A stretch of DNA of 64,000 bases from Bradyrhizobium sp. (lineage in GTDB: Bacteria > Pseudomonadota > Alphaproteobacteria > Rhizobiales > Beijerinckiaceae), in the NCBI GenBank assembly GCA_004799435.1, contig SSMV01000169.1:980-64979 (forward strand), in the 5' to 3' direction. A program made the position numbers and the translations under genes. Of the stretch, positions 3,407-46,215 are shown one piece after another. Numbering within the stretch: the stretch's first letter is position 1; each line of letters opens with the position of its first letter. The notes under the pieces are model-generated. The model was given only the letters and a program-made list of their open reading frames with translations. It ran no database searches and was not told where the DNA came from.

Positions 3407-3486
3407 CGTCGTCCTTCGCCCCGTCCGTTGCTACTGGCGCTCTATATAGGAATTTCGCCGTTAGAAAAGCCGTCTTACGGCGCCTG

Positions 3487-5271: not shown

Positions 5272-5488
5272 CTCGTTTTCTCTGCCACCTCGATCTCGTC
5301 GATCGGCGCCCGGCTCGCCGCCGCCCTGAGCGAGCGCCGAGGTTCTTTACCTGAGGGGCGCGGCGGCGCCAATGGCGGGCGAAGGGGTTCGGGGCAGCGG
5401 CGCCGCGAGAAACCCATTATTTGCCGTCAAGGCCCCATGGTGCGAAGGGGCGTCTCCGGCCCCGGCCATGGTGATTCGCGACTTCGAC

Positions 5489-7021: not shown

Positions 7022-7111
7022 GCGATCCGCGGCTCGGGCTTACCTGACAAGACTTGCTCGAGAGCCGAATTGTGCTAGGCGAATGCCCCGCTCACGCTTT
7101 TTGGGGAATTC

Positions 7112-8347: not shown

Positions 8348-8351
8348 ACCC

Positions 8352-9323: not shown

Positions 9324-9324
9324 C

Positions 9325-10212
<888 letters not shown>

Positions 10213-10247
10213 CGGCTCACGCCCTCTCGACTGTCAGGAAGACTCGG

Positions 10248-11718: not shown

Positions 11719-11850
11719 GGCCGTCGTTCGCCCGCCGGTCCGCGTTCCGCCCCACGTCTCGTTTCCACCAGTCAAGACATGGCTTGGCGGGGGTTGTAAA
11801 GTCCGAAGGACGGCTAAGCGACGAAAGTCGAGGACGAAACGTTTTGGCGC

Positions 11851-18469: not shown

Positions 18470-18484
18470 CAGCCTACCTTCAGA

Positions 18485-19984
18485 TCAATGAAGCTCGGTC
18501 TTGACGATATGGTCCGCGACGCGCAGCGCCTGCGCCGCAATCGTCAGCGAGGGATTGACCGCCGCCGAGGTCGGCAGACACGAAGCGTCGACGACGAAGA
18601 GATTGGGGTGATCCCAGGCGCGGCAGTAAGGATCGAGCGGCGATGTCGCGGGATCCGCGCCGATACGAATGGTGCCGCATTGATGTGACGGCGTGCGGCG
18701 ATCGAAGGGCCGCGTCAGAACGATCGGATAGCCCGCCGCGCGCAGCCGCTCTTTGAAGGCGTCGACGAGTTTCAGATGCGTCCCCCAGTTGCTGCGCTTC
18801 CAGTCAAGATGGATTTGGCCGCCGTTCACGGTGACGCGGCTCTCCGGATTGGGAAGGTCCTCGCTCATCGCGTACCAGTCGACCGCGCGCCGCGACAGCG
18901 GCGAGAGAAGCCATTCCGGAAAACGCCGCAGGTTCGCTTTCAGGATCGGCGCGCTCACGCGGCCAAGCAACTGGATATTGCCGAGCGGCGCGCCGCCATG
19001 TCCATCATCGAAGTAGAAGTCGTTGACGCCGAGCGTCTTCTGATAGATCGAGTCATTGACGGCTCTGGGGTCGATCGCCAGCATCGCGGTCGTATTGTGA
19101 TTCATGAAATGCCGCCCGACCATGCCTGATCGATTGGCGATGCCGCCGTCGCGCGAGGAGAGCAGAAGGACGGCGGAATTGACCGCGCCGGCCGACAGGA
19201 TGACGGTCTTGGCCACTATGCGCTTGCGTTCGCCGTCGATCGTCGCTTCGACGCCGGATATTCGTTTTCCGTCGGCGTCCAGCAACAGGCGTTCGACCTT
19301 GGCGCGCTCGCGCAATTCGACATTGGGATAGCGAAACGCCTCGGCGAGCCCGCAGCTTTCGGCGTCCATCTTGCCGAAGCCGGTATCGGGAAATGCGTCC
19401 CAGGGCGTCTTCGCCCGCGCCAGCCAGCGATCGATGTCGACCCCTAGGGGCAGCGAGAATGGGTGCAGGCCGACGCGCGTCATGCGCTCGCGCACAAGCG
19501 CGATCGCCGGCTCGTCGGGAACGGGCGGAAAGGGATAGGGCGCGGAATGGTCCGGCTCAGTGGGATCGCCGCCGAGCGCGCCATGCGCGCGATAGAGTCT
19601 TTCCGCACGACCATACCAGGGTTCGAGCTCGCCATATTCGAAGGGCCAGCCCGGCGTCGCGCCGTCAGGATAGTCGACCGGCCGGAAGTCCCGCGCCCGG
19701 TAGCGCAGCAGGACCGCGCCATAGAGTTTGGTGTTTCCCCCGACGTAATAATAATTGCCGGGATTGAAAGTTACGCCGGCGCCGTCGATCCAGGATTCCT
19801 GCGGCCGGTACACGCCGCGCTGGAATATGGCGCGCGCGTCGCGCGCGTCGGGAGAATCCGGCAAGCGCGAGCCGCGCTCGAGGATGAGGATTTTCGCGCC
19901 GGAGGGCGCCAATCCGGCCGCGCAGGTCGCGCCGCCCATTCCCGATCCGACGATCAGAATGTCAACCGTCTCAGGATCTGTCAT
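18485..19984 (-). CDS. Second GMC-family flavoprotein oxidoreductase (different subfamily)
   Basis: GSGMGG, VGGNTKLYGA, GRHFMNH, SHQCGTIRIG and PTSAAVNPSLTIAAQALRVA. Confidence 0.88.
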   Translation of the reverse strand: MTDPETVDILIVGSGMGGATCAAGLAPSGAKILILERGSRLPDSPDARDARAIFQRGVYRPQESWIDGAGVTFNPGNYYYVGGNTKLYGAVLLRYRARDFRPVDYPDGATPGWPFEYGELEPWYGRAERLYRAHGALGGDPTEPDHSAPYPFPPVPDEPAIALVRERMTRVGLHPFSLPLGVDIDRWLARAKTPWDAFPDTGFGKMDAESCGLAEAFRYPNVELRERAKVERLLLDADGKRISGVEATIDGERKRIVAKTVILSAGAVNSAVLLLSSRDGGIANRSGMVGRHFMNHNTTAMLAIDPRAVNDSIYQKTLGVNDFYFDDGHGGAPLGNIQLLGRVSAPILKANLRRFPEWLLSPLSRRAVDWYAMSEDLPNPESRVTVNGGQIHLDWKRSNWGTHLKLVDAFKERLRAAGYPIVLTRPFDRRTPSHQCGTIRIGADPATSPLDPYCRAWDHPNLFVVDASCLPTSAAVNPSLTIAAQALRVADHIVKTELH

Positions 19985-20007: not shown

Positions 20008-21120
20008 CTAGACCCGGCGGCTGGTCTGCGGATCGAACAGAACCGCCTTGTCGAGATTGAATGCGAAGGAGACATTTTGTCCCGGCCGCACGTCGGCGTC
20101 GGCGCGCATCCGCGCGGTGACTTCCTTGCCGGCGATCTTCGTCACCACGAAAGTGTCCGAGCCGGCCGGCTCGACGAGATCGACATGCGAGGCGAAAGTC
20201 GCGATGTTTTTCGACTTGCGGTCGGCGCTTTCCGGGTCGCTCACCGCCTCCGGGCGAATGCCAAGAATGACGATACCGCCGTCGCGCAGCTTCGTCGCGT
20301 CGGCGCTGTTCGGCGCCGGCAGGACGATCGGTTCCGCGCCGGGGCGGTCGACCACGATCGAAGCGGCGCCGTTGGTCTTCGACACTTTCGCCTCGATGAG
20401 ATTCATCGAGGGCGAGCCCATGAAATCGGCGACGAAGAGATTGGCCGGCGTGTTGTAAATCTCGTAGGGGCTGCCGACCTGTTGCAATTCGCCGTCCTTC
20501 AGCACGGCGATGCGGGTCGCGAGGGTCATCGCCTCGATCTGGTCATGCGTGACATAGACGATCGTCGTTCCGGTCTGGTGATGAAGCCGTTTGATCTCGA
20601 TGCGCATGTCGACGCGCAATTTGGCGTCGAGGTTGGAGAGCGGTTCGTCGAACAGGAACACGCGCGGTTGGCGCACCAGAGCCCGGCCCATGGCGACGCG
20701 CTGGCGCTGGCCGCCTGACAGCTGGCTCGGCCGCCGATTGAGCAAATGCTCGATTTGCAGCGTCTTGGCGACATCGGCCACCGCCTTGTCGCGCTCCGGC
20801 TTCGGCACGCCGCGCATTTCCATGCCGAAGGCCATGTTCTGCGCGACCGACATGTTGGGATAGAGCGCGTAGGACTGGAACACCATCGCGATGTCGCGCT
20901 TCGAGGGATGGAGATCGTTGATTACGTCGCCGTCGATGCTGATCTCGCCGGAGGTGATCGATTCCAGTCCGGCGATCATGTTGAGCAGGGTCGATTTGCC
21001 ACAGCCCGACGGCCCGACGAGAACGAGGAAGCCGCCCTTCTCCAGGGTCAGATCGATGCCCTTGATAATCTCCAGCGCGCCGAAGCGCTTGCGCAGAGCG
21101 TTGATCTCAAGAAAGGCCAT
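20008..21120 (-). CDS. Sugar ABC transporter ATP-binding protein (MalK/MsmK family)
   Basis: GPSGCGKST, LSGGQRQRVAMGR, FDEPLSNLDAKLR and a C-terminal TOBE/OB region. Confidence 0.96.
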   Translation of the reverse strand: MAFLEINALRKRFGALEIIKGIDLTLEKGGFLVLVGPSGCGKSTLLNMIAGLESITSGEISIDGDVINDLHPSKRDIAMVFQSYALYPNMSVAQNMAFGMEMRGVPKPERDKAVADVAKTLQIEHLLNRRPSQLSGGQRQRVAMGRALVRQPRVFLFDEPLSNLDAKLRVDMRIEIKRLHHQTGTTIVYVTHDQIEAMTLATRIAVLKDGELQQVGSPYEIYNTPANLFVADFMGSPSMNLIEAKVSKTNGAASIVVDRPGAEPIVLPAPNSADATKLRDGGIVILGIRPEAVSDPESADRKSKNIATFASHVDLVEPAGSDTFVVTKIAGKEVTARMRADADVRPGQNVSFAFNLDKAVLFDPQTSRRV

Positions 21121-21123
21121 GAT

Positions 21124-22071
21124 CTATCCCTTCACCGCGCCGGCCATCAGACCGCGCACGAAATAACGGCCGCCGACGATATAGACGAACAGCGTCGGCC
21201 CCGCGGCGATGATCGCTGCGGCCATATTGACATTATATTCAACGATGCCCGTCGAGGTGTTGACGAGATTGTTCAAGGCGACCGTCATCGGCGAGGAGTC
21301 GCCCGCCGCAAAAGTCGAGCCGAACAGAAAGTCGTTCCAGATGTTGGTGAACTGATAGATCACCGTCACGATGATGATCGGCGTCGAATTCGGCAGAAGG
21401 ATGCGACGAAAGATCTGAAAAAAACTCGCGCCGTCGATCTGCGCCGCCTTCACCAATTCGGTCGGAAACGCCTCGTAATAGTTGCGGAAGAACAGGGTGG
21501 TGAAGCCGAGGCCATAAATGACGTGGACGATCACCAGATTGACGGTCGGATTGCCGAAGCCGAAAGCGTAGCCCGTCGCATCGATCAGCGAATTGCCGAT
21601 CTCGCCGAGATAGCCGAGGATCACCGCCATCGGAATGATGACCGACTGGAACGGGATGAAGCAAGCAAACAGCATCATGCCGAAGACCAGTTTATGGCCG
21701 GGGAAGCGCCATTTGGTCAGCACGTAGCCGTTCAACGCGCCGAGCATGGTCGAGATCGCCACCGCCGGCACGACCATTTTGATCGAATTCCAGAAATAGC
21801 CGGCGATGCCGGCCGTGTCCGAAACGCCGATGCGCGCCTCGCCCCAGGCCTGCACCCAGGGGTCGAAAGTCAGGTGATGCGGCAGGGCGAACATATTGCC
21901 GCCGGTCACTTCGTCGAGCGGCTTCAGCGATGTCATCACCATGACGACAAGCGGAATGAGATAGACGAAAGCAAAGAGGAGCAGCAGGCCGTAAATCACC
22001 ACGCGGGTGAGATTGGAGTGGCGCGCCGGCTCGCGGGCAGGCGGCGACGTGATGAGATCGGCGGCGCTCAT
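21124..22071 (-). CDS. Carbohydrate ABC transporter permease (MalG-type)
   Basis: EAA loop ELVKAAQIDGAS and IWNDFLFG. Its ATG overlaps the upstream stop (ATGA); the ORF track over-extends it. Confidence 0.93.
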   Translation of the reverse strand: MSAADLITSPPAREPARHSNLTRVVIYGLLLLFAFVYLIPLVVMVMTSLKPLDEVTGGNMFALPHHLTFDPWVQAWGEARIGVSDTAGIAGYFWNSIKMVVPAVAISTMLGALNGYVLTKWRFPGHKLVFGMMLFACFIPFQSVIIPMAVILGYLGEIGNSLIDATGYAFGFGNPTVNLVIVHVIYGLGFTTLFFRNYYEAFPTELVKAAQIDGASFFQIFRRILLPNSTPIIIVTVIYQFTNIWNDFLFGSTFAAGDSSPMTVALNNLVNTSTGIVEYNVNMAAAIIAAGPTLFVYIVGGRYFVRGLMAGAVKG

Positions 22072-23018
22072 CGACCCTTCTCCCGAAGCTCGGAATAGAG
22101 ATAGGGCACCATGATCGCGGCGATGGTCATCAACATGATGACCGCGGCGGTCGAGCCGACCGCCATCTGATTGCGGGTGAAGGTGAAGGAATACATGAAG
22201 GTCGACGGCAACTCCGCCGCGCCGCCGGGATTCTTGCCGGTGACCGAGAGCACCAGATCGTAGGATTTGATCGCCATATGGGTGAGAATGATGATGGCGG
22301 ACAGAAAGACCGGCCGCATGATTGGGATAATGATGCGCCGGTAGGTCTGAAAGGCCGACGCGCCGTCGATCTGCGCGGCTTTGATGATTTCGCCGTCGAC
22401 GCCGCGAAGCCCGGCGAGGAACATCGCCATGACGAAACCGGACGTCTGCCAGATTCCGGCGATGGCGACGCAATAGATCATCATGCGCGGATTGACGACC
22501 CAATCGAAATGAAAACTCGTCCAGCCCCAGTCGTGCATGGCTTTCTCGAGCCCGATGCCCGGATCGAGAAACAGTTTCCAGGCCGTGCCGGTCACGATGA
22601 AGGACAGCGCGAGCGGATAGAGATAGATCGGCCTCAAGATGCCTTCGCCGCGGATCTTCTGATCGAGCAGGATCGCCAGCGTCAGGCCCAGCACCAGACA
22701 GAAAAAGACATAGAGGCCGCCGAACAGGCCCATGTTGACGATCGCCGTGTACCAGTTCGACGGCGGGTCGGATTGAAAGGTCCAGTCCCACAGGCGCCGG
22801 TAGTTCAGCAAGCCGACGAGATGCGTGCTCGCGAAGGCCTTGGAATTGGTGAAAGAGAGAAAGAACGTCCACAGGTTGAAGCCGTAGACGAAGACGAGCA
22901 CCAGAATGAAAGACGGCGCCAGGACGAGCTTCGGCAAAAGATTTTGCAGGCGCTGTCGCGCCAGTCCGCGACGAGCGCGAGTCGTTTTGACCACGGTCGG
23001 CGCCACACTTACGGTCAT
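22068..23018 (-). CDS. Carbohydrate ABC transporter permease (MalF-type)
   Basis: EAA loop EIIKAAQIDGAS and IWQTSGFVMAMFLAGL. Confidence 0.93.
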   Translation of the reverse strand: MTVSVAPTVVKTTRARRGLARQRLQNLLPKLVLAPSFILVLVFVYGFNLWTFFLSFTNSKAFASTHLVGLLNYRRLWDWTFQSDPPSNWYTAIVNMGLFGGLYVFFCLVLGLTLAILLDQKIRGEGILRPIYLYPLALSFIVTGTAWKLFLDPGIGLEKAMHDWGWTSFHFDWVVNPRMMIYCVAIAGIWQTSGFVMAMFLAGLRGVDGEIIKAAQIDGASAFQTYRRIIIPIMRPVFLSAIIILTHMAIKSYDLVLSVTGKNPGGAAELPSTFMYSFTFTRNQMAVGSTAAVIMLMTIAAIMVPYLYSELREKGR

Positions 23019-23053
23019 CGAACGGACCCGGCCTTATCTGAAACGGGGACGAA

Positions 23054-23080
23054 CCCTCCCTCGCGCAAGGCGAGGGAGGG
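23054..23080 (-). other. 11-bp GC stem-loop immediately downstream of the substrate-binding protein gene (mRNA stabiliser or partial terminator)
   Basis: ccctccctcgc-gcaag-gcgagggaggg is a perfect stem; the U-tract on the minus strand is weak. Confidence 0.65.
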
Positions 23081-23091
23081 CTTTTATCAGA

Positions 23092-24357
23092 TTATTTGGC
23101 GTTATTGAGCGCCTTGTCCAGCTCCGCAACGGCGGCGTCGGACGTCTTGATCTCGCCGTGGAAGAACTTCGTCACCACGTCGTGATAGGCGCCAGCGACC
23201 GCCGGCGGCTGCGCGTAGTTCTGCGCCATGGAGCCGACGAAGGTTCCGGCCGCGTTGGCGGCCTTGACGTCGGCGATGCCCTTCTTGCCGCACATGTCGA
23301 AGGCGGTGTCGGGAACATCCATACGCGCCGGCACCGAACCCTTGACGACGTTGAACGCCGACTGGAAGCTCGGGCTCATCGTCGCGTCGGCGAGCGCGAG
23401 CTGCGCGCCCTGGCGGTCGGCCGAGACCTTGAACATCGCGAACATGTCGGTGTTGTAGATCACGGAGCCGTCGGTGCCGGGGAAGCGATAGCAAAGGAAG
23501 TCTTTGCCCGCTTCCTTGTTGGCGGCGCGGAACTCGCCCTTCGCCCAGTCGCCCATCACCTGAACGAGCGCGTCGCCCTTGATCACCATGGCGGTCGCGA
23601 GGTTCCAATCGCGGCCGGCGTAGTTCGGGTCGACGTAATCGCGCAGCTTGGCGAGATTGTCGAAGGACTTCTTCATCGTGTCGGACTTCAGAGCGCCTTC
23701 GTCCAGGTCGACGAACGCCTTCTTGTAGAATTCGATGCCGCCGGTGGAGGCCACGACCGAATCGAAGAGGGTCGCTTCCTGCCACGGCTGGCCGCCGAGC
23801 GCGAGCGGGATGACCCCCGCCGCCTTCGCCTTGCCAAGCAGCGCAACGAAATCGTCGAAGTTCTTCGGCTCGGTTCCGCCGATCTTGTCCATCACGGACT
23901 TATTGATCCACACCCAGTTGACCGAATGGATGTTGACCGGAACCGCGTCCCACTTGCCGTCCGTTGTGGTGAACTTCTGCAGGGCCTGCGGAACGACCTT
24001 CGCCCAATCCTCCTTCTTGGCTAGCGACGAGATGTCGCCGAGCTTGCCGGCTTCCGCGTAGTCGACCGCGAAATAACCGAGGATCTGCGAGGCGGTGGGC
24101 GGATTGCCCGCCGCGACCATCGCCTTCAGGGCGGTCATCGCGCCTTCGCCGCCACCGCCGGCGATCGGCACGTCCTTCCAGGCGTAGCCTTCTTTGGCGA
24201 GATCCTGCTTGAGGACGTTCAGCGCGGCTGCTTCGCCGCCCGAAGTCCACCAATGCAGCATCTGGATTTCTTTGTCCTCAGCGGCAATGGCGCCTGAGGT
24301 CAGGCCGAGCGCTCCCGCGGTCATCACGCTCGCCATCAAAATCGAACGAAGTTTCAT
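23092..24357 (-). CDS. Sugar ABC transporter substrate-binding protein (glucose/mannose GtsA-like family)
   Basis: Signal peptide, QMLHWWTSGGEAAAL, VPVNIHSVNW, LALGGQPWQ, DWNLATAM and MGDWAKGEF. Confidence 0.92.
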   Translation of the reverse strand: MKLRSILMASVMTAGALGLTSGAIAAEDKEIQMLHWWTSGGEAAALNVLKQDLAKEGYAWKDVPIAGGGGEGAMTALKAMVAAGNPPTASQILGYFAVDYAEAGKLGDISSLAKKEDWAKVVPQALQKFTTTDGKWDAVPVNIHSVNWVWINKSVMDKIGGTEPKNFDDFVALLGKAKAAGVIPLALGGQPWQEATLFDSVVASTGGIEFYKKAFVDLDEGALKSDTMKKSFDNLAKLRDYVDPNYAGRDWNLATAMVIKGDALVQVMGDWAKGEFRAANKEAGKDFLCYRFPGTDGSVIYNTDMFAMFKVSADRQGAQLALADATMSPSFQSAFNVVKGSVPARMDVPDTAFDMCGKKGIADVKAANAAGTFVGSMAQNYAQPPAVAGAYHDVVTKFFHGEIKTSDAAVAELDKALNNAK

Positions 24358-24445: not shown

Positions 24446-25975
24446 TCAGGCTCCGCGTGGGAGCCACCAACTCGTTCTCGGACCGGTGTGGACGTGAAAC
24501 GTCTTTTCCTCGGTGTAGTCTTTCACCGCGTTGCGCCCCAATTCGCGGCCGACGCCCGACTGGCGATAGCCGCCGAACGGCAGTTCCGGCGTTCCGTCCA
24601 TGAATGTGTTCACCCAGATCGTGCCGGCGCGCACGCCGCGACCGACGCCGATGGCCGTGTCGACGTCGCGGCTCCAGACGCTGGCGGACAGGCCGTAGTC
24701 GGTGGCGTTGGCGAGCGCGATCGCTTCCTCGCGCGTATCGAAACTCAGCGTGACGACAACCGGGCCGAAGACTTCAGCGCGTGCGATCGCCATCGCCGCA
24801 GTCACCTTGTCGACGATTGTCGGCGCCATGAAAAACCCGCTCGACTCCAGCCTGCCGCCGCCCGCCCGAACCTGCGCGCCGTCGCGTTCGGCGGCAGTTA
24901 CGTGATCCTCGATCTTCCCGAGATGATCCGAAGTGATGATCGCGCCGACGCGCGTATCCGCATCGAGTGGGTCCCCGACCTTCACGCTCCTGGCGCGCGC
25001 CGCCAGACCTTCGATGAACTCATCGGCGATGCTCGAATGAAGAAGCAAGCGGGAGCCGGCATTGCAGCATTCGCCCGCGTTGAAATAGGCGCCGAACGTG
25101 GCGGCGTCGAGCGCCGCATCCATATCCGCGTCGGGAAAGATCAATTGCGGGTTCTTGCCGCCAAGCTCCATCGAGACTTTTTTCAATGTCGCGGCGCCCG
25201 CCGCGACGGCCGCGCGACCCACCCGCGTCGAACCGGTGAAGGAGATCATGTCGACCTCCGGATCGGCGGTGAGCGGCGCGCCGACCTCCGGCCCGTATCC
25301 CGTCACGACGTTGCAGACGCCTTCCGGCAGGCCGGCCTCGGCCAACAGGTTCATCAGATGCAGCGTCGAGGCTGACGTCATCTCGCTCGGCTTCACGACG
25401 CATGTGCAGCCTGCGGCGAGCGCGAAAGGCAGCTTTTGCGACACGATCAGAAACGGGAAATTCCACGGCGTGATGATCGAGACGACGCCGATCGGTTCCC
25501 TCAGCACCACGCCCAACCGGTCGGCGCCGAGATTTGCGTAGCTTTCGCCCGAAAGCTCTCTCGCCAATGAAGCGGCGTAACGCCAGATGTCCGCGGCGCC
25601 TTCGATTTCGCCGCGCGCCTGAGCGAGCGGCTTTCCCGACTCCAAAGTGTCGAGAATTGCGATCAGTTCACGATCGCGGTCGATCAGATCGGCCGTCTTC
25701 AGGAGAAGACGCGCGCGGTTGGACGCCGTCTCGCGCGGCCACGGTCCATTGTCAAAGGCGAGGCGCGCAGCGGCGATGGCGGCGCGCGCATCCTCCGCGC
25801 GACCGCGCGGGATGCGCGTCACGACGACCCCATGCGCCGGGCTCGATCGCTCGATCATCTCGCCGTCGCCGCCAACCGCGCGACCCGCGATGCTCATCGC
25901 GCGATCGCGCGGAAAGCGCGCGAGCGCGTCGTTCAGCTTCTTCGTGTCAACGGCGATGCGTGCGGGGGCGTTCAT
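24446..25975 (-). CDS. NAD(P)-dependent aldehyde dehydrogenase, L-sorbosone dehydrogenase (SNDH)-like
   Basis: ITPWNFP, FTGST, MELGGKN, catalytic GECCNAGSR and GGYRQSGVGRE. ERSSPAH..VTRIPR and the C-terminal GPRTSWW recall Gluconobacter SNDH. Confidence 0.9.
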   Translation of the reverse strand: MNAPARIAVDTKKLNDALARFPRDRAMSIAGRAVGGDGEMIERSSPAHGVVVTRIPRGRAEDARAAIAAARLAFDNGPWPRETASNRARLLLKTADLIDRDRELIAILDTLESGKPLAQARGEIEGAADIWRYAASLARELSGESYANLGADRLGVVLREPIGVVSIITPWNFPFLIVSQKLPFALAAGCTCVVKPSEMTSASTLHLMNLLAEAGLPEGVCNVVTGYGPEVGAPLTADPEVDMISFTGSTRVGRAAVAAGAATLKKVSMELGGKNPQLIFPDADMDAALDAATFGAYFNAGECCNAGSRLLLHSSIADEFIEGLAARARSVKVGDPLDADTRVGAIITSDHLGKIEDHVTAAERDGAQVRAGGGRLESSGFFMAPTIVDKVTAAMAIARAEVFGPVVVTLSFDTREEAIALANATDYGLSASVWSRDVDTAIGVGRGVRAGTIWVNTFMDGTPELPFGGYRQSGVGRELGRNAVKDYTEEKTFHVHTGPRTSWWLPRGA

Positions 25976-25986
25976 GGTCCTCGGTC

Positions 25987-26760
25987 CTATCGGCCGCTGA
26001 AAACTGGCGCGCGCTTGGCGCGGAAAGCCGCTCGGCCTTCAGCCAGATCTTCGGTGTAAGCCGTAAGCGCGCCTGCGAGCCCCTCGATCGGAGCATCCCG
26101 ATCCTCCCCTTCGGCCGCATTGATCATCGACTTGATCATTTGAACTGCGAGCGGCCCACGCTTGGCTATATCTGCAGCAAGAACGTGCGCGCGAGAAGCC
26201 CCTTTGCCTTTTGCCACGACTTCATCGACGAGTCCGAGCGTTAGAGCTTCCTCCGCCGTGAAGACTGCGCCGGCCAGCGCCATTCGTCTTACAATAGAGG
26301 CGCCGAAGCGACGCACGAGTCTCTGCGTGCCCGACCAGCCCGGCGCCATGCCCAATCCCGATTCAGGAAGACCGAGTTTGACGCCGCTCTCGGCGATGCG
26401 AATGTCGCCAACAGCGGCAAGTTCCAGGCCTCCGCCCAAGGCGTGACCTGCCAGCACGACGATCAACGGCACGCGAAGACGCGCCAGGGCTTCCAGAGCG
26501 CGGTGTCCGGCGCGCGTCCAGTCGCGCCACATTTCCAAAGGCGGCAGATCGCCCCAAGCCGCGATGTCGCCGCCCGCGCAAAAGGCCTTGCCCTCGCCCG
26601 ACAGGATCGCCACTCGCATGTCAGTGGACGCGTCGATCGCCCGCGCGCTTTCCAAAAGAGCGTCGATCATCGATCGGTCGAGCGCGTTCAGCTTGTCCGG
26701 TCGCTTCAGCGTCAGGAACGCGCAAGGGCCTTCGAAACGCAATTCGACAAAGGCATTCAT
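25987..26760 (-). CDS. Enoyl-CoA hydratase/isomerase (crotonase) family protein
   Basis: RPDKLNAL, AFCAGGDI, GHALGGGLEL, LGLPESGLG and WSGTQRLVR; both catalytic-type Glu positions are present. Confidence 0.92.
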   Translation of the reverse strand: MNAFVELRFEGPCAFLTLKRPDKLNALDRSMIDALLESARAIDASTDMRVAILSGEGKAFCAGGDIAAWGDLPPLEMWRDWTRAGHRALEALARLRVPLIVVLAGHALGGGLELAAVGDIRIAESGVKLGLPESGLGMAPGWSGTQRLVRRFGASIVRRMALAGAVFTAEEALTLGLVDEVVAKGKGASRAHVLAADIAKRGPLAVQMIKSMINAAEGEDRDAPIEGLAGALTAYTEDLAEGRAAFRAKRAPVFSGR

Positions 26761-28358
26761 TGCAGCGTCTCCCGCGCCGGCCGTAGCTGCAGATTGAACG
26801 GCTCAGGGTTGAACAGCGCCGCGTCCATCGTCCGGACGTGCTGGGCCACGCGAAGCGGAAATTCCGCCTGCGCGAGAATGTCGCGCTCGAGATCGACGCC
26901 AAGCGCGATCTCTATGACCGTCACGCCGTCGCGCTCCAGGCGCATAACGCAACGTTCGGTGACATAGACAATGTCCTGTCCCTGCGCGACGGCGCGCGGA
27001 CCGGAGAAGGAAATCTGCTCGACCGCTTCGACGAGCTTTTTGACTTTACCTTCCTTGACGATCGAAACCGCGCCATCGCGCACGTCGAGCTTCGCCCCGG
27101 CCGTGAAATAGCCGGAGAAGACGATCTTTTTTGCCCGCGCGGTGATGTCGACAAAACCGCCGGCGCCGGCGGTCACATGCGGACGCACGCCGAGCTTGGA
27201 CACATTGACGGAGCCGCCCTTGTCGATCTGCAGGAAGGAGAGCAACGACATATCGAAGCCGGCGCCCTGGAAGTAAGTAAATTGGTGGGGCGACTGGACA
27301 ATCGCCTCGGCGTTGGAAGCGCAACCGAACTGGAAATCGAGCAGCGGCACGCCGCCGACGGCGCCCTGTTCGATGACCCAGGTCACCGCGCCGTGGCGGC
27401 CTTCCTCAATCAGGATGCGCGGCACATTTGCAGATATGCCGAAGCCGATATTGACGGCGTCGCCGTCGCGCAGCTCCTGGGCGACGCGTCTGGCGATCAC
27501 TTTGGCAATGTCGAACTTCGGGATTTCGAACGACGACAGCGGCCGAAAGATCTCGCCGGAGATCGCCGGCTCATAGACGGTGTTGGTCGTCTGCAACTGA
27601 TCGGGCGCGACGACGATATAGTCGACCAGAACGCCCGGCACGACGACGTCATGGGGACGGATCGTGTCGGCGGCGGCGAGACGCTTAACCTGCGCAATGA
27701 CGATCCCGCCATTGTTGCGAACCGAGAGCGCCTGATCGAGCGGCCCCAGCACGCCGCCTTCATGTTCGTAGGAGAGATTGCCGCGTTCGTCGGCCGTCGT
27801 GGCGCGAATGATCGCGATATGCGGAGTGATCGTCGGAAAGAAGAGCCATTCATCGTCAGCGAAATTGACGCGCTTGACGATCGGATCGACGGCGGCCTTA
27901 GCGTTCATCGCGCAGCCCTCATGGAGCGGATCGACAAAGGTCTCCATGCCGACTTTCGTCAACACGCCCGGCCGCTTGGCGGCGGCTTCGCGATGAATGT
28001 CGAAGAGAATGCCAGAGGGGACGTTGTAGGCCGGGATCGCGTCGTCGCAGATCATCTTCCAGATCGCCGGCGGCTCGGCCGAGGACGGCCCGGACGGATA
28101 AGAGCCCGCCAGCACTCGCGCCAGGCATCCGGATTTCGCGATATGATCGACGCCCTTGACGCCCCACATGTCGCCCGCCGCGATCGGGTGCAATGTCGTG
28201 AGATCGCGCGGGTGACCGTCGGCGTCGAATCTTTCTCCGATCGCTTTAAGAACCGCGTCCGGGCAGCCAAGCGCCGAAGAGGACGAGACCGTTACGATCG
28301 CGCCATCAGGAATGAGACAAGCAGCGGCGGCGGCGGAAATGACTTTTTTCTTCGCCAT
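26757..28358 (-). CDS. Acyl-CoA:acetate/3-ketoacid CoA transferase (family I, fused alpha/beta, YdiF/Pct-like)
   Basis: AIIRATTADERGN, NGGIVIAQV, NIGFGIS, catalytic IEQGAVGG and GAGGFVDIT. Confidence 0.92.
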   Translation of the reverse strand: MAKKKVISAAAAACLIPDGAIVTVSSSSALGCPDAVLKAIGERFDADGHPRDLTTLHPIAAGDMWGVKGVDHIAKSGCLARVLAGSYPSGPSSAEPPAIWKMICDDAIPAYNVPSGILFDIHREAAAKRPGVLTKVGMETFVDPLHEGCAMNAKAAVDPIVKRVNFADDEWLFFPTITPHIAIIRATTADERGNLSYEHEGGVLGPLDQALSVRNNGGIVIAQVKRLAAADTIRPHDVVVPGVLVDYIVVAPDQLQTTNTVYEPAISGEIFRPLSSFEIPKFDIAKVIARRVAQELRDGDAVNIGFGISANVPRILIEEGRHGAVTWVIEQGAVGGVPLLDFQFGCASNAEAIVQSPHQFTYFQGAGFDMSLLSFLQIDKGGSVNVSKLGVRPHVTAGAGGFVDITARAKKIVFSGYFTAGAKLDVRDGAVSIVKEGKVKKLVEAVEQISFSGPRAVAQGQDIVYVTERCVMRLERDGVTVIEIALGVDLERDILAQAEFPLRVAQHVRTMDAALFNPEPFNLQLRPARETLQ

Positions 28359-30403
<2,045 letters not shown>

Positions 30404-30443
30404 GCTTCACTCCCCCAGAATTCTTATGATTCTGGCGCTAACA

Positions 30444-30459
30444 TTTGGATCGCTCCAAA
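30444..30459. promoter_or_regulatory. Candidate LacI operator 1, TTTGGATCGCTCCAAA
   Basis: Near-perfect palindrome with a central CG, typical of LacI family operators, about 40 bp upstream of the LacI start. Confidence 0.65.
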
Positions 30460-30520
30460 AACAAACCCAGCAGCACCATAGACACGCTGGAACTATTGGA
30501 TTGATCATTTGCCTTGATTA

Positions 30521-30534
30521 TTGGAACGTGCTAA
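30521..30534. promoter_or_regulatory. Candidate LacI operator 2, TTGGAACGTGCTAA
   Basis: Degenerate copy of the same TTGGA-CG-CCAA-type palindrome upstream of the divergent flavoprotein gene. Confidence 0.45.
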
Positions 30535-30588
30535 AAATGTTAACGAGTTTCTAATTCCTCGTCAACTCCGAATTTCGCGGAAACGTCC

Positions 30589-32664
30589 TTGGCCCCGCCC
30601 GTCCCGCAATCCATCCTCGACGGATTGACCGACGTGACCATGCCTCGGCTGGCCAATGAAAGGCCGCCGGGGGATCTCGCGAGGGTCGGGCCCTATATCT
30701 TGCCCATCCAGCGCAGCGAAGCGCTTGTGCTTGGCAGCGGCGCGGCTGGCTTACGCGCCGCCGTCGAGTTGAAACGTCGCGATGTCGACGTTGTGGTCGC
30801 AAGCCAGAGCGCCTTCGGCGGAACTTCAGCCTGTTCAGGCTCCGATAAACAAACGCTGCACACCGCCAACAGCGCCGGACGCGGCGACGATTTCCAGGCG
30901 CTCGCCGATGCGCTGGGCGCCGGCGGCGCGATGGACGAGGACACCGCCTATGTCGAAGCGGTAGGTTCGGCGCGGGCGCTCGCCTCGCTTCAATTCATGG
31001 GCCTGCCGATTCCTCAGGATCGGCTGGGCGGCGTGTTGCGTTATCAAACCGACCATGACGAGATCGGCCGCGCGACAAGCTGCGGGCCTCGCACCTCGCG
31101 TCTCATGGTGCAGGCGCTGGCGCGCGAGGCGATCCGTCTTGAGATTCCGATCTTCAATCACACGACGGGCGTTCGCATTCTTGTTGCGGACGACGCGAGC
31201 CCGCGCGCAGTCGGCGTGATTGCCGCCGCGCCGGAAAAGAGAACGGCGGAAAATCCCTACGGTCTCACGGTCTTCCTTTCCGACGCCATTGTCCTTGCCG
31301 CCGGCGGCCCCGGCGAGCTCTATCGCGACAGCGTCTATCCGAAACATTGTTTCGGATCGCTCGGCCTCGCATTGGAGGCCGGCGTCGAGGCGGTCAATCT
31401 GACCGAAAGCCAATTCGGCATCGGCACGCCGCGCTATAATTTTCCGTGGAATCTGTCGGGCACTTACGTGCAATGCATGCCTTATATTTTTTCGCGCGAC
31501 GCGCGGGGCGTCGAACATAATTTTCTAACTGAGTACTACCGCACGACGCAGGAGCTCGCGTCCAACATCTTCCGCAAGGGCTATCAATGGCCGTTCCATG
31601 CCACGCGCATGCTCGACTTCCGATCGAGCCTGCTCGACCTCGCCGTCTATCGCGAGACCCGACTGCAGCGAAAAGTGTTCATGGATTTCAACCGCAACCC
31701 GCTGCCCGCGCCCGGCGACAGGCCGTTCAGCCTCGATCGTCTGGAGGACGACGTGCGCGCCTATCTAGAGAAGAGCGGTGCCCTGCTTGAGGCGCCGATC
31801 GATCGTCTGCGGAAAATGAACCCGCTCGCGATCGAGCTCTACAAGCGCTACAAATATGACATCACGCGCGATCCGCTCGAATTTGCGATCAACAATCAGC
31901 ATATGAATGGCGGCCTCGCCGTCGACGCCTGGGGCCGAACGACTCTCGCCGGCTGCTACGCCATCGGGGAGGCGGCGGGAACTCATGGCGTGACGCGGCC
32001 CGGCGGCGCCGCGCTGACCGCCGGTCAGGTCTTCGGTACGCGATGCGCCGAGCATATCGCCTCGATGCGCAAGCCTCACAAGACAGTCAATTCTGAGTCG
32101 CGCGCGATCGAAGCGGCCGTCGCGAGAATCATCGACGCCCTCAAAAGCGAGAACGGGTTGAGCGCGAAGTCGATCCGCGACGAAATCCAGGCGCGCATGA
32201 GCGATCACGCCGGAATTCTTTGCAAGCGCGATGACGTCAATCGCGCCAAGACGGCGGCGGCCGCCTTGAACCAATCGATTCGACAGCAAGGCGTCGCCTT
32301 CGCCGGCGCCAATGAGGCGCTGCGGGCGCTGCAGTGGCGGCAATCCGCTCTGGCGTCGGAAGCCATTCTCACGGCGCTGGCGTTCTATCTCGATCGCGGC
32401 GGCGGCAGCCGCGGCGCGCGCGCCGTTTGCTCGTCGAGCGGCGATCAGGTTCCCCAGGGCAGAAGCGGCCCCATCGAACAGGCCCGCTTCGTTTCGGAAC
32501 GGCCGCAGGATCGCGCCGAACAGATTCACATCCGATTGCGCGACGAAGCGTTCGTCTGCGAGCCACGGCCCATTCGCAAACGAAACCGCAACGACTCGCC
32601 GTTTTTCGAACGCGACTGGCCGGACTATCTGACGGGCGCGATCCATGATCCGCCTCCCGGATGA
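30589..32664 (+). CDS. Stand-alone FAD-binding protein of the SdhA/FrdA/NadB fold, function unknown
   Basis: LGSGAAGLRAA, VLAAGGPG, QHMNGG, GEAAGTHGVTRPGGAAL and the C-terminal GGSRGA. No Fe-S or membrane subunits are nearby. Start codon is uncertain. Confidence 0.82.
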   Translation: MAPPVPQSILDGLTDVTMPRLANERPPGDLARVGPYILPIQRSEALVLGSGAAGLRAAVELKRRDVDVVVASQSAFGGTSACSGSDKQTLHTANSAGRGDDFQALADALGAGGAMDEDTAYVEAVGSARALASLQFMGLPIPQDRLGGVLRYQTDHDEIGRATSCGPRTSRLMVQALAREAIRLEIPIFNHTTGVRILVADDASPRAVGVIAAAPEKRTAENPYGLTVFLSDAIVLAAGGPGELYRDSVYPKHCFGSLGLALEAGVEAVNLTESQFGIGTPRYNFPWNLSGTYVQCMPYIFSRDARGVEHNFLTEYYRTTQELASNIFRKGYQWPFHATRMLDFRSSLLDLAVYRETRLQRKVFMDFNRNPLPAPGDRPFSLDRLEDDVRAYLEKSGALLEAPIDRLRKMNPLAIELYKRYKYDITRDPLEFAINNQHMNGGLAVDAWGRTTLAGCYAIGEAAGTHGVTRPGGAALTAGQVFGTRCAEHIASMRKPHKTVNSESRAIEAAVARIIDALKSENGLSAKSIRDEIQARMSDHAGILCKRDDVNRAKTAAAALNQSIRQQGVAFAGANEALRALQWRQSALASEAILTALAFYLDRGGGSRGARAVCSSSGDQVPQGRSGPIEQARFVSERPQDRAEQIHIRLRDEAFVCEPRPIRKRNRNDSPFFERDWPDYLTGAIHDPPPG

Positions 32665-42650: not shown

Positions 42651-43631
42651 ATGCTTGCATTGGAGACGCCACAGCCGGCAAGCGTCCTCTATGCGCGGGT
42701 CAGCCGTGTCATCACGCCGATGGAATGGCCGGCCTTCGCCGCCGACGCCGAGGCGATCCTGCGCCTGAAGCGCCAACGCGAGGCGATCATCCTCGCCCAC
42801 AACTACCAATCGCCCGAGATCTTCCACTGTGTCGCCGATGTGGTCGGCGACAGCCTGGCGCTGGCGCGCGAGGCGGCGCGAAGCGACGCCAAAGTGATCG
42901 TGATGGCGGGCGTCCATTTCATGGCCGAGACCGCCAAGCTCATGAATCCGTCGAAGATTGTGCTGACCCCCGACCTAAAAGCTGGATGTTCGCTCGCCGA
43001 GTCGATCACACCGGCCGATGTCGCGCTGCTGCGGGCGGCCTATCCCGGCGTTCCGATCGTCACTTACGTCAACACCTCGGCCGCAGTGAAGGCGGTCTCC
43101 GATATTTGCTGCACCTCGGCCAACGCCCGCAAAGTCGTCGAATCGCTTGGCGTTCCACGCGTCATCATGATCCCCGATGAATATCTGGCGCGCAATGTTG
43201 CGGCGGAAACCTCGGTCGAGATCATCGCCTGGCGCGGACGCTGCGAAGTGCATGAACAATTCACCGCCGCCGACATTCGCGAATTGCGCGAGGCCCATCC
43301 AGACGCAATCGTCCTCGCCCATCCCGAATGTTCGCCCGAAGTCGTCGCGGCTGCCGATTTCGCCGGCTCGACCGCCGACATGATCGGCTATGTCGGACAG
43401 AAGCGGCCGGCGCGCGTGGCGCTCGTCACCGAATGTTCGATGAGCGACAATGTCGCGGTTCATTATCCGGAAGTCGAGTTCGTGCGGCCCTGCGCGCTCT
43501 GTCCGCATATGAAGCGCATAACGCTCGCCAAGATCCGGCGCGCGTTGGAGACGCTGTCGGACGAAGTGACGATCGATCCCGCAATCGCCGCGCCGGCGCG
43601 CCGCGCGGTCGAACGGATGCTGGCGCTATGA
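42651..43631 (+). CDS. nadA: Quinolinate synthase
   Basis: [40 protein letters not shown] and CPHMKRIT. Confidence 0.97.
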
Positions 43632-46042: not shown

Positions 46043-46215
46043 TGGCGACTTCTCGCAGGAAGCCTTAAGGCCGCATCGGACCGACGAACATTGTTATCGA
46101 ATGGCTAACCAACCCGAGGAAAACCGGCCCTATCGGGATCACTATTCGGTGACGAAAAGGCGAGGCCGTGAGACCTTGCGTCTTGCGCTGTTCGTCTTTT
46201 TGGCCGGGAACGCCG

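Follow-up and report, generated by a model that had tools for sequence, protein, structure and literature searches.

The gene at 30589..32664 of the window, by which we mean the whole 64,000-nt stretch of DNA analysed here, encodes a soluble, partner-less FAD enzyme with the SdhA/FrdA fold and a non-covalently bound flavin, which forms a dedicated part of a catabolic divergon under LacI control. At slightly below even odds (a probability of roughly 0.45), the site of action of this enzyme is C4-C5, next to the carboxylate, in a uronate-type intermediate or the CoA ester of such an intermediate, which in the window would derive from a sugar of 1,5-anhydro or hexose-like type. Few flavoenzyme scaffolds are as well studied as the SdhA/FrdA/NadB fold, yet it includes a branch of at least 433 clusters without an assigned reaction. 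This branch, to which the protein belongs, retains one carboxylate-binding Arg in an otherwise rebuilt active site and is tied to a conserved 12-gene pathway from sugar to sugar acid to CoA ester, which is itself undescribed. Solving the role of the flavoprotein would add a specificity, and perhaps a type of reaction, that is new to the fold, would reveal the fate of 1,5-anhydro-sugars in bacteria past the 1,5-anhydro-D-fructose reductase (AFR) step, and would assign a function to an accessory operon that most E. coli strains carry. Because orthologs occur in E. coli, Rhizobium and roseobacters, the question is directly approachable at the bench.

An SdhA fold with a rebuilt active site

The open reading frame is real, with a TTG start that is kept in four aligned relatives, and specifies 691 aa, of which the first 30 residues are conserved out to E. 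coli. Pfam FAD_binding_2 (PF00890) matches residues 45-476 over positions 2-414 of its 414 (E 5e-28, 98.8 bits against a cut-off of 20.4). The AlphaFold (AF2) model is confident (pLDDT 91.5) and superposes over its full length, with all four domains, on SdhA/FrdA, the top Foldseek matches (E 1e-31 to 1e-28; TM 0.67 for the query and 0.80 for the target), at an identity of 17-18%. The best profile-to-PDB match is NadB (E 1.4e-30). The features of the gene are listed below, with residue invariance counted in a 36-sequence family alignment (A2) and equivalences to SdhA and NadB resting on HMMER and hhalign alignments.

30589..32664, + strand: flavoprotein gene, SdhA/FrdA fold, 'GSDKQT' family (ORF, Pfam, AF2, Foldseek)
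30727..30747, + strand: dinucleotide-binding motif GSGAAGL, residues 47-53; G49, G51 and A53 invariant in A2
30838..30855, + strand: GSDKQT, residues 84-89, in place of the SdhA covalent-FAD segment H-T-x-A-A-Q-G-G; invariant in 36/36
31411..31419, + strand: Q275-F276-G277, with an invariant Gly for the catalytic His of QFHPT (HMMER/hhalign to NadB and SdhA); G277 in 36/36
31576..31596, + strand: KGYQWPF, residues 330-336, family-specific, in the remodelled capping domain; K330, G331, Y332, W334 and P335 invariant
31897..31914, + strand: QHMNGG, residues 437-442, counterpart of SdhA HYxMGG with the His moved by one position; Q437 and H438 both in 36/36
31984..32007, + strand: HGVTRPGG, residues 466-473, with the retained carboxylate-binding Arg; R470 in 36/36

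Likeness to SdhA/FrdA (E. coli FrdA 1kf6 and SdhA 1nek; M. smegmatis Sdh 6lum and 7d6v) comprises the four-domain fold, the N-terminal FAD motif, the GE..G.HG..R..G segment with its carboxylate-binding Arg, and the RLP and SRG motifs. In contrast, the flavoprotein has no covalent-FAD His, a Gly for the QFHPT His, no catalytic Glu, a remodelled capping domain with new invariant motifs, no Fe-S or anchor partners, and a sugar-acid/CoA operon as its setting. NadB (E. coli 1chu and 1knr; the NadB of the window at 43328-45172) is likewise a stand-alone, soluble protein of the same fold with non-covalent FAD, but the flavoprotein is about 150 residues longer, has a full SdhA-type C-terminal domain and has lost the equivalents of His244 and Glu260.

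An earlier note on this DNA had quoted five strings from the flavoprotein, all of which are present: TSACSGSDK (79-87), ESQFGIGT (273-280), WNLSGTYVQ (287-295), QHMNGG (437-442) and HGVTRPGGAAL (466-476). The five NadB motifs that it set against them are all carried by the genuine NadB of the window. Its pairing of QFHPT with QFGIG holds, which makes G277 the equivalent of the catalytic His (SdhA His242, NadB His244), as does that of HGANR with HGVTR, which makes R470 the equivalent of the carboxylate-binding Arg (SdhA R399, NadB R386). WNLSGTYVQ, however, is not the counterpart of SE..RG: NadB 'SEAVRGEG' pairs with FSRDARG (300-307), where SdhA Thr254 is kept as S302, SdhA Glu255 falls on a variable position, so that the catalytic Glu is lost, and NadB Glu260 corresponds to R303, also at a variable position. 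The note further held that one catalytic His and one Arg are kept. This is right for the Arg and only partly so for the His, since SdhA His354 (and the NadB His) aligns to Q437, with H438 as the next residue.

As the same note had stated, the covalent-FAD His (E. coli SdhA His45, 8-alpha-N3-histidyl) is absent, no His being aligned at or near its position; HMMER places position 82 there, which family members fill with N, C, M or Q, and in hhalign the SdhA RSH segment falls in a gap. In the capping domain, the alignment to SdhA and NadB is of low confidence. SdhA has no segment corresponding to KGYQWPF, and position 340, just after it, is K or R in 33/36; this basic residue may stand in for the proton-shuttle Arg (SdhA Arg286), on which HMMER and hhalign disagree. 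The SdhA dicarboxylate set (His242, Thr254/Glu255, Arg286, His354, Arg399) is thus reduced to R470 and S302, and the NadB set His244/Glu260/Arg290/His351/Arg386 is not found as such either. Foldseek and HMMER/hhalign together bear out the description of an SdhA/NadB-fold flavoprotein in which the dicarboxylate machinery is largely replaced, and the profile alignments support a rewired active site.

Public databases label the protein generically as 'succinate dehydrogenase / fumarate reductase flavoprotein subunit', and this annotation, like the overall fold, agrees with a conventional enzyme, be it a soluble fumarate reductase, an SdhA or a second L-aspartate oxidase. However, the protein scores 4- to 10-fold under every NCBIfam SdhA, FrdA, NadB and TfrA equivalog cut-off (98.7 bits against 567.3 for the best SdhA/Frd model, 123 against 718 for TfrA and 101.6 against 452.75 for NadB, TIGR00551), its active site differs in the catalytic His, the Glu and the covalent-FAD His, and the genome already has a canonical SdhA, on another contig (C147), and a NadB. 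The gene lies between a LacI gene and a methyltransferase-GT8 gene, and no sdhB/C/D genes (Fe-S, membrane anchor) were found among its neighbours, in agreement with the earlier reading. The term 'orphan' that went with that reading applies to the missing Fe-S and anchor partners and fails as to uniqueness, the family being very large and present in 58% of complete E. coli genomes. True Frd and NadB functions were rejected on residue and context grounds, as was a role as electron sink (see below), and we hold any of these to be very improbable.

Operators and the neighbouring operon

LacI-type palindromes had been proposed for the region between the flavoprotein gene and the divergent lacI gene. 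There are two, both conserved in relatives.

30404..30588, no strand: divergent lacI/flavoprotein control region; sigma-70-like sites on both strands, conserved blocks in four relatives
30445..30458, no strand: LacI-type operator O1, TTGGATCGCTCCAA; match to TTGGAACGTTCCAA; aligns with AATTGGnACGTTCCAATT in relatives L001 and L003
30521..30534, no strand: LacI-type operator O2, TTGGAACGTGCTAA; second match to TTGGAACGTTCCAA; 14-nt block invariant in four of four aligned relatives
29366..30403, - strand: LacI-family repressor gene (Pfam LacI and Peripla_BP_1/3); adjoins the flavoprotein gene in relatives too

O1 and O2 are the sole matches to TTGGAACGTTCCAA (up to 3 mismatches) in the 64 kb, and O2 sits a short way downstream of the -10 elements predicted for the two divergent promoters. 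The sequencing runs containing the locus are metagenome DNA runs only, with no RNA run among them. Beyond lacI, the leftward genes are the following.

28359..29438, - strand: 1,5-anhydro-D-fructose reductase (AFR) homolog, Gfo/Idh/MocA family (PDB 2glx E 1.6e-137, 4koa E 9e-134)
26757..28358, - strand: fused family-I CoA transferase, YdiF-like (Pfam CoA_trans; PDB 2ahu E 3e-94)
25987..26760, - strand: crotonase-family (de)hydratase (ECH) with both catalytic Glu (Pfam ECH_1; GGGLELA and PESG motifs)
24446..25975, - strand: aldehyde dehydrogenase (ALDH), BADH-like (Pfam Aldedh E 5e-164; NCBIfam BADH 460 bits, under the cut-off)
20008..24357, - strand: CUT1 ABC transporter (Pfam), with binding protein (SBP) 23092-24357, two permeases 21124-23018 and MalK-like ATPase 20008-21120
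16862..19984, - strand: two GMC flavoenzymes (Pfam, PDB, NCBIfam)
18485-19984, - strand: GMC2, like the large subunits of FAD-glucose/fructose dehydrogenases
16862-18469, - strand: GMC1, like choline dehydrogenase/alcohol oxidase

The neighbour that had been taken for an anhydro-sugar enzyme is truly a close AFR homolog, with the homology beginning near residue 27 of the ORF as listed. The top PDB match of the crotonase is 3-hydroxypropionyl-CoA dehydratase 5zai, and the binding protein best matches 4r2b (E 4e-158), followed by the glucose/galactose-binding proteins 5dvf, 8hqq and 2b3b; the ligands of 8HQQ and 8KD0 are taken from PMC11485210. A 582-aa 'fused permease' ORF at 21124-22872 is an artefact of ORF calling: relatives have two 315-aa genes, and the window has a second frame at 22068-23018.

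A widespread family among sugar-acid genes

The flavoprotein carries all of the 70-odd invariant columns of the 36-sequence alignment and is therefore a member of the 'GSDKQT' family. At E below 1e-30, this family numbers at least 433 clusters (50% identity); its members come from at least ten phyla, and about 58% of the complete E. coli genomes have an ortholog. Family proteins of about 650-700 aa share the invariant motifs GSDKQT, Y-x-T-D, GPxTS, QxG, WNxSGxYxQ, FxKGYxWP, SSxxD, QHxNGG, GExxGxxGxxRPGGxAL, RG and a C-terminal (W)FE. No curated model covers the family, and a full-text literature search found no paper on it or its operon. Hosts include aerobes and strict-anaerobe lineages (Sedimentisphaerales, Peptococcaceae, Succinatimonas), a range that speaks against an obligate oxidase and is in keeping with a redox-neutral or partner-flexible reaction.

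Linkage of the flavoprotein to the sugar operon, as the earlier note proposed, is strongly supported by synteny in more than 30 genomes, by co-operons in Rhizobium and roseobacters and by the shared LacI operators. In Roseiarcus-type relatives, the lacI-AFR-CoA transferase (CoAT)-ECH-(ALDH)-ABC-GMC order is retained on the left, while the right flank differs every time. In Rhizobium, Ruegeria and Yoonia, the genes form one co-directional 12-gene operon (LacI-CoAT-ECH-ALDH-SBP-perm-perm-ATPase-GMC2-GMC1-Gfo-FLAV) with the flavoprotein (FLAV) gene last; the Gfo gene overlaps FLAV, which in Ruegeria is followed by a KdgK-like kinase gene. CoAT and ECH are present in Rhizobium and the roseobacters just outside the 10-kb flank of the flavoprotein gene, the CoA transferases being orthologs with 63-74% identity. 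An in-frame TGA in the roseobacter CoA transferases is an artefact, a stop codon read through at the match end.

The two GMC enzymes co-occur with the flavoprotein gene in more than 25 loci, and an electron sink that re-oxidises them had been suggested. This is not supported, because conservation of the family is equally strong where the operon has no GMC enzyme (E. coli, Planctomycetota, strict anaerobes). The E. coli cluster reads SDR-TIM-ECH-CoAT-FLAV-MFS, where TIM is a xylose-isomerase-like TIM barrel and the MFS protein is of the D-galactonate-transporter type; its FLAV is 55% identical to that of the window and is ATGA-coupled (translational coupling) to a CoA transferase with 38% identity to that of the window, which PGAP names 'acyl CoA:acetate/3-ketoacid CoA transferase'. 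An Enterobacterales MAG has ECH-CoAT-TetR-SDR-FLAV-SDR-TRAP, with a TRAP binding protein closest to the D-glucuronate binder 4N91, and Brenneria has an SDR and a xylose-isomerase-like TIM barrel but neither a CoA transferase nor a crotonase alongside. Distant members (37-40% identity, about 32 loci) have KduD-like SDR, KDG-kinase-like and Eda-like genes as neighbours: an SDR in 19 loci, an aldolase of the Eda type in 13 and PfkB in 7. Among the SDRs, those from E. coli and a Sedimentisphaerales locus pass one and the same NCBIfam equivalog, PRK12745. Genes 3-6 positions from the distant homologs are not enriched in polysaccharide lyases, GH88/GH105, KduI or KdgF, which leaves an unsaturated-uronate substrate without independent support; GH28 is near in 3 loci only. 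Since the family is seated among genes for sugar-acid and CoA-ester breakdown, it probably marks an undescribed catabolic step.

Candidate reactions

What the analysis shows is the fold, the residue pattern, the synteny and the operators; the substrate, the direction in which the reaction runs and a role in ring opening are inferred. Action on a sugar-derived or enol-ether intermediate, as envisaged in the earlier note, is plausible and is one leading reading. The glucose-type ABC transporter would import a hexopyranose-like sugar, of which 1,5-anhydro-D-fructose, -glucitol or -mannitol would be the likeliest, given the AFR homolog. The GMC enzymes, AFR and ALDH would convert this sugar to a C6-carboxylate, a (1,5-anhydro)uronate-type acid, to be processed as a thioester by CoA transferase and crotonase. 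In the flavoprotein, we infer that the R470/Q437-H438 pocket holds the carboxylate or thioester carbonyl while flavin N5 chemistry takes place on the neighbouring carbons C5/C4, with D86-K87-Q88, W287/N288/Y293/Q295, K330/Y332/W334 and K/R340 probably supplanting the His/Glu/Arg dicarboxylate machinery.

The likeliest single step is a tentative proposal with the odds against it: CoA transferase and crotonase would generate an alpha-alkoxy-enoate with a C4=C5 double bond (a vinyl ether), which the flavoprotein would process. The pyran ring would be opened, either by hydration with the help of the flavin or by redox chemistry at C4-C5, to give 2-keto-3-deoxy- or 2,5-diketo-3-deoxy-hexonate, and an NAD(P) reductase (AFR, Gfo or a KduD-like SDR), KDG kinase and Eda aldolase could complete the route. 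As a counter-point, GMC, AFR, GMC, ALDH, CoAT and ECH would in theory suffice for a route from 1,5-anhydro-sugar to KDG, so that the necessity of the flavoprotein depends on the argument that vinyl-ether hydration requires a catalyst. The Brenneria cluster, with neither CoAT nor ECH alongside, and the lack of enrichment in genes for unsaturated uronates near distant members also count against the preferred reading.

The CoA transferase, crotonase and NAD(P) dehydrogenase that accompany the flavoprotein in E. coli, Rhizobium, roseobacters and the window also suit a surrogate acyl-CoA dehydrogenase, which would carry out C-alpha/C-beta desaturation in a beta-oxidation-like cycle. In this cycle, CoA transferase would be followed by the flavoprotein, hydration by crotonase, an NAD(P) dehydrogenase (AFR, Gfo, SDR) and a 3-ketoacid-type CoA transferase freeing the beta-keto acid. 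No cluster has an ACAD or ETF gene, the ancestral chemistry of the fold is C-C desaturation beside a carboxyl group, the crotonase resembles short-chain hydratases and has both catalytic Glu, and the PGAP name of the E. coli transferase agrees. Nevertheless, a sugar-derived uronate already bears the beta-hydroxyl, which makes desaturation needless, distant members have KDG kinase and aldolase instead of CoAT and ECH, and the electron acceptor is not encoded. Moreover, non-covalent FAD in the SdhA fold is usually too low in potential for the oxidation of an unactivated C-C bond, as the comparison of SdhA with Frd illustrates. We regard this cycle as unlikely.

KstD and the urocanate, cinnamate and acrylate reductases are FAD_binding_2 proteins with non-covalent FAD, which, as stand-alone enzymes, desaturate C-C bonds or reduce C=C bonds next to a carbonyl or carboxylate. 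Compared by description only, KstD, a two-domain enzyme with a Tyr/Tyr/Gly catalytic set, and the soluble enoate reductases differ from the flavoprotein in lacking the helical and C-terminal SdhA domains, and none of them figures in the top 50 Foldseek matches. A KstD-like desaturase could take 3-keto-1,5-anhydro-hexitol, after oxidation of C3 by Gfo, SDR or GMC, and remove the C2 proton and C1 hydride to yield a 2-hydroxy-3-keto-glycal, from which hydration and re-reduction would give a free aldose. Such a route would parallel the levoglucosan / 3-keto-glycoside pathway in oxidative form, and it might account for the 'C-1 oxygenation' of 1,5-anhydro-mannitol that Kuhn et al. reportedly described in Sinorhizobium morelense in 2006. 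AFR and the glucose-type binding protein of the window are in line with it, as are the Rhizobium Gfo overlapping FLAV, of which the best family match is levoglucosan dehydrogenase (307 bits, under the cut-off), and the SDR and TIM barrel of E. coli and Brenneria, the latter having the fold of the LgdB eliminase/hydratase. It leaves the most conserved partners (ALDH, CoAT, ECH, KDG kinase/aldolase) without a role, however, no KstD is found within the top 50 Foldseek matches, and the invariant R470/H438 pocket and the acid-type transporters of Enterobacterales indicate a carboxylate substrate, which makes it decidedly unlikely.

Since NadB, of the same fold, oxidises a C-heteroatom bond alpha to a carboxylate and R470 is kept, the flavoprotein might instead oxidise the C-H that is alpha to the carboxylate and whose carbon bears the oxygen of the ring or hydroxyl (in a uronate or 1,5-anhydro-uronate, C5), to an oxocarbenium or 2-keto acid. 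Ring-opening by hydrolysis would then amount to an oxidative ether cleavage, and the associated SDR/Gfo reductases could reduce the keto group formed. We give this a slim chance: the product, a 2-keto-hexonate rather than a 3-deoxy acid, fits the Eda-like and KDG-kinase-like neighbours poorly, CoAT and ECH are unexplained, and strict anaerobes would require an electron acceptor.

For the preferred action at C4-C5, a chemical lead comes from the 2-haloacrylate hydratase Caa67YL of Pseudomonas sp. YL, which, according to the account of Mowafy et al. (2010) in the review PMC6100074, needs reduced FAD even though its reaction, in which an alpha-hetero-substituted acrylate takes up water, is redox-neutral. 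The likeness is one of chemistry only, namely that needed to open an alpha-alkoxy-enoate ring. As a new reaction class of the SdhA fold, flavin-dependent opening of the ring in cyclic-ether sugar acids may be conceived in two versions, which even taken jointly are speculative, with the odds clearly against them. Water would be added, in the style of 2-haloacrylate hydratase, to the alpha-alkoxy-enoate (C4=C5 vinyl ether) of 1,5-anhydro-uronate made by CoAT and crotonase, or 3-keto-1,5-anhydro-hexitol would be desaturated at C1-C2. If true, either version would be the missing ring-opening step in the bacterial catabolism of 1,5-anhydro-fructose, -glucitol and -mannitol, and would also explain the unassigned operon that about 58% of the complete E. 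coli genomes carry.

Fold and active site of the flavoprotein

The gene lying divergent to the sugar operon is the following:

30589-32664, + strand: flavoprotein ORF, TTG start, 691 aa

When the upstream regions of three relatives are aligned with that of the gene, the TTG start is unchanged throughout; the N-terminal 30 residues are conserved out to the E. coli ortholog, hence the long form is taken as the real protein. Residues 45-476 form a FAD_binding_2 domain (Pfam, 98.8 bits). An AlphaFold2 model, computed from a 36-sequence family alignment, reached a pLDDT of 91.5 and a pTM of 0.93. The closest PDB structures to this model are complex II flavoproteins, matched over their full length (TM 0.67/0.80, 17-18% identity), with NadB and APS/PAPS reductase ranking below them. 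The SdhA/NadB fold put forward in an earlier note on this DNA is therefore right, and the protein is predicted to retain all four SdhA domains.

Although the flavoprotein resembles SdhA, FrdA and NadB in fold and presumed mode of working, it has neither the covalent His, the catalytic His, the Glu nor the partner genes of these enzymes, and it fails their equivalog scores. It scores 4-10 times below the cut-off of every NCBIfam model of SdhA, FrdA, NadB, TfrA and AprA (nadB: 101.6 against 452.75). As previously noticed, no Fe-S or anchor genes adjoin it, its neighbours being the divergent lacI gene (left) and a convergent methyltransferase-GT8 gene (right), while the canonical SdhA of the same genome is encoded on a different contig. 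That it is an ordinary Frd or NadB, or else an electron sink, is barely credible. The convergent neighbour (32726-34432, - strand) encodes 568 aa with weak matches to methyltransferase (N-terminal) and GT8 (central) domains and no NCBIfam hit; it heads a glycosyltransferase block with no relation to the flavoprotein.

Residue equivalences were obtained with HMMER (family profile against PDB sequences) and with hhalign (family profile against SdhA and NadB of the same genome), and conservation was taken from the 36 sequences.

Active-site residues of SdhA/NadB and their equivalents in the flavoprotein family (36 sequences)
QFHPT His (SdhA His242): G277 in QFGIG, invariant, both methods agree
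HYxMGG His (SdhA His354): Q437, followed by H438, both invariant, both methods agree
HGANR Arg (SdhA R399 / NadB R386): R470 in HGVTR, invariant, both methods agree
SdhA His45 (covalent-FAD His): no His by either method; N, C, M or Q at position 82, variable
SEAVRGEG of NadB: FSRDARG (300-307), both methods agree; Ser in 35/36, positions of Glu and Arg vary

By one method the proton-shuttle Arg (SdhA R286 / NadB R290) falls on position 340, occupied by K or R in 33 of the 36 sequences, and by the other on a non-conserved position. The family has its own invariants, G84-S-D-K-Q-T89, Y152/T154/D155, G166-P-x-T-S170, W287-N-x-S-G-x-Y-x-Q295, F328-x-K-G-Y-x-W-P335, S346-S-x-x-D350 and R608-G609, and this set appears to stand where the SdhA/NadB residues were lost. 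The FAD motifs and the R470 pocket are kept and the dicarboxylate residues are gone. The rewired active site of the earlier note thus holds in substance; in detail, SEAVRGEG pairs with FSRDARG and not with WNLSGTYVQ, and His354 with Q437 rather than with the adjacent H438. All five peptide strings quoted there for the flavoprotein are present, and the five quoted for NadB are all carried by the genuine NadB of the window (43328-45172; Pfam FAD_binding_2, E 1e-84). The longest frame of the latter (+ strand) is 614 aa, yet its FAD domain begins at residue 112, so that either translation starts about 100 codons downstream or an unusual N-terminal extension is present.

In SdhA, the half of the site that is kept here clamps a carboxylate beside the proton-exchanging carbon, and the neighbouring carbon exchanges a hydride with N5. 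A mono-carboxylate would therefore be expected to react at its alpha/beta carbons, corresponding to C5/C4 of a uronate-type ring. Our main reading, with a probability of roughly 0.45, is that the flavoprotein is an FAD enzyme dedicated to its pathway, where it acts on the uronate-type intermediate at a position next to the carboxylate. NadB-like oxidative ether cleavage seems very unlikely.

Operators and operon partners

The 185-bp spacer between lacI and the flavoprotein gene contains two LacI-type operators:

30445-30458: O1, TTGGATCGCTCCAA
30521-30534: O2, TTGGAACGTGCTAA

The palindrome TTGGAACGTTCCAA, with up to 3 mismatches, has two matches in the whole 64 kb, O1 and O2. The O2 14-mer is invariant in four relatives, and sigma-70-like elements on both strands flank the two operators. 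Together, these features give good grounds to expect that LacI co-represses the transcription units on the lacI and the flavoprotein sides.

The genome is a soil/peat MAG. In its operon, the Gfo/Idh/MocA gene matches the Sinorhizobium 1,5-anhydro-D-fructose reductase (AFR) at E 1.6e-137. A KstD-like C1-C2 desaturase acting on 3-keto-1,5-anhydro-hexitols would suit such a partner, but is quite unlikely. The ABC binding protein (23092-24357, - strand) matches PDB 4R2B at E 4e-158, with glucose/galactose-binding proteins next; since it groups with these and not with binders of polyols or disaccharides, the substrate of the operon is narrowed to a monosaccharide-like pyranose. GMC1 resembles choline dehydrogenases and alcohol oxidases, GMC2 the large subunits of FAD-glucose and fructose dehydrogenases, the aldehyde dehydrogenase (ALDH) betaine-aldehyde dehydrogenase, and the CoA transferase YdiF. 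The crotonase retains both catalytic glutamates and is nearest to 3-hydroxypropionyl-CoA dehydratase. An Eda homolog is encoded elsewhere in the genome.

A 582-aa "permease" ORF (21124-22872, - strand) was discarded as an ORF-calling artefact, relatives having two 315-aa permease genes; the second permease frame of the window lies at 22068-23018 (- strand). No Pfam match at E up to 1e-3 or 1e-4 was obtained for three further long ORFs, 1419-2918 (+; 499 aa), 10396-11799 (+; 467 aa) and 46105-48315 (-; 736 aa), some of which may be shadow frames in a sequence of 64% GC.

Gene neighbourhoods and distribution of the family

Comparison with other genomes added a conserved 12-gene operon, a triad of flavoprotein, CoA transferase and crotonase reaching from E. 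coli to Alphaproteobacteria, and a link to enzymes finishing 2-keto-3-deoxy-gluconate (KDG)-type acids. In relatives at 69-79% identity, lacI-AFR-CoA transferase-crotonase-(ALDH)-ABC transporter-GMC is kept on the left and the right flank differs each time. In Rhizobium and roseobacters (61-65% identity), the flavoprotein gene is co-directional with the Gfo/Idh/MocA gene, after binding protein-permease-permease-ATPase-GMC2-GMC1, and the two genes overlap in Rhizobium binxianense. A whole-genome search placed CoA transferase and crotonase (63-74% identity) just outside the 10-kb flank, completing the order LacI-CoA transferase-crotonase-ALDH-binding protein-permease-permease-ATPase-GMC2-GMC1-Gfo/Idh/MocA-flavoprotein. 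In Ruegeria, a KdgK-like kinase follows. In Rhizobium ruizarguesonis Vaf-46 (L023, locus 7136-9045 and G002:C1:3058432-3059996), GMC1 and the CoA transferase each appear split into two overlapping frames, which suggests frameshifts, hence cluster decay or sequencing errors.

The E. coli ortholog (55% identity over 686 residues) occurs in 3,123-3,137 of 5,426 complete genomes, in an island with only generic annotations:

NZ_AP038814.1 432160-450329 (L096), genes at locus 2885-11164: between ytfB and yjfZ; TetR, then divergently SDR-TIM barrel-crotonase-CoA transferase-flavoprotein-MFS

The CoA transferase and flavoprotein genes share an ATGA overlap there, and the MFS protein belongs to the D-galactonate-transporter type. 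An Enterobacterales MAG has crotonase-CoA transferase-TetR-SDR-flavoprotein-SDR-TRAP, its TRAP binding protein being nearest to the D-glucuronate binder Apre_1383 (4N91). An acyl-CoA-dehydrogenase surrogate within a beta-oxidation-like cycle would fit the triad, but is unlikely. Among about 32 loci of distant members (37-40% identity), the neighbours include an SDR in 19, an Eda-like aldolase in 13, a PfkB kinase in 7 and a Gfo/Idh/MocA enzyme in 6. The usual order in Planctomycetota/Sedimentisphaerales is OYE-FeS-FAD protein (875 aa)-SDR-aldolase-flavoprotein-KDG-kinase-like, and the SDRs of E. coli and of one Sedimentisphaerales locus both pass the NCBIfam equivalog PRK12745. The first gene of this operon, conserved upstream of the flavoprotein gene in L070, L071, L075, L076 and L083 (e.g., L076:5687-8314), encodes a fusion of 875-950 aa with OYE-type FMN, DPD-like 4Fe-4S and pyridine-nucleotide-disulphide oxidoreductase domains; its part in the same pathway may be that of redox partner or of ene-reductase.

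Constant companions of the flavoprotein are thus NAD(P) sugar dehydrogenases, together with enzymes that either complete the conversion of keto-deoxy sugar acids or process acids in the form of CoA esters. Loci with an acid-type transporter have no GMC/ALDH genes and those with a neutral-sugar-type transporter have them, as would be expected if GMC and ALDH produce the acid in situ. The family is equally conserved in operons without GMC (E. coli, Planctomycetota, strict anaerobes), which argues against an electron sink for GMC enzymes.

A word-indexed search gave more than 4,450 relatives, the best 120 of which are all about 690 aa, 72-79% identical and labelled just "FAD-binding protein" or generic "sdh/frd flavoprotein". 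Scanned exhaustively with HMMER, the 50%-identity representatives yielded 433 clusters at E < 1e-30, mostly full-length at 35-45% identity, and when a single genome of each species was scanned, more than 594 loci were found, in Alpha-, Beta- and Gammaproteobacteria, Planctomycetota, Verrucomicrobiota, Lentisphaerota, Armatimonadota, Acidobacteriota, Spirochaetota and Firmicutes. A full-text literature search found the family in no publication, and no NCBIfam curated model covers it; judged by its motifs, the flavoprotein belongs fully to this unnamed family. The observation itself stands and the core idea of the earlier note is largely right, with "orphan" and the electron sink to be dropped. 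Within the taxonomic order of the window's genome, the gene is rare, occurring in 2 of 151 evenly sampled genomes, hence an accessory trait, and it was not found in three other genera of the same taxonomic family; the cluster is patchily distributed and has probably spread horizontally.

A candidate pathway

With the flavoprotein placed in the operon, a scheme of six steps gives every gene a use. After sugar uptake (step 1), GMC2 and AFR would set the C2 configuration, manno mapping onto the D-erythro diol of KDG (step 2), and GMC1 and ALDH would oxidise C6 (step 3). CoA transferase and crotonase would then eliminate the 4-OH to give a C4=C5 vinyl ether (step 4), the flavoprotein would open the ring of this alpha-alkoxy-enoate and so yield the 2-keto-3-deoxy acid (step 5), and KDG kinase followed by Eda would complete the route (step 6). 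The conversion assigned to the flavoprotein is itself tentative and less probable than the main reading. To our knowledge, its sole precedent is 2-haloacrylate hydratase, the likeness lying in the chemistry. That enzyme is described as a reduced-FAD-dependent, redox-neutral hydratase (PMC6100074). The occurrence of the flavoprotein family in aerobes and strict anaerobes alike is consistent with a reaction that is redox-neutral or partner-flexible.
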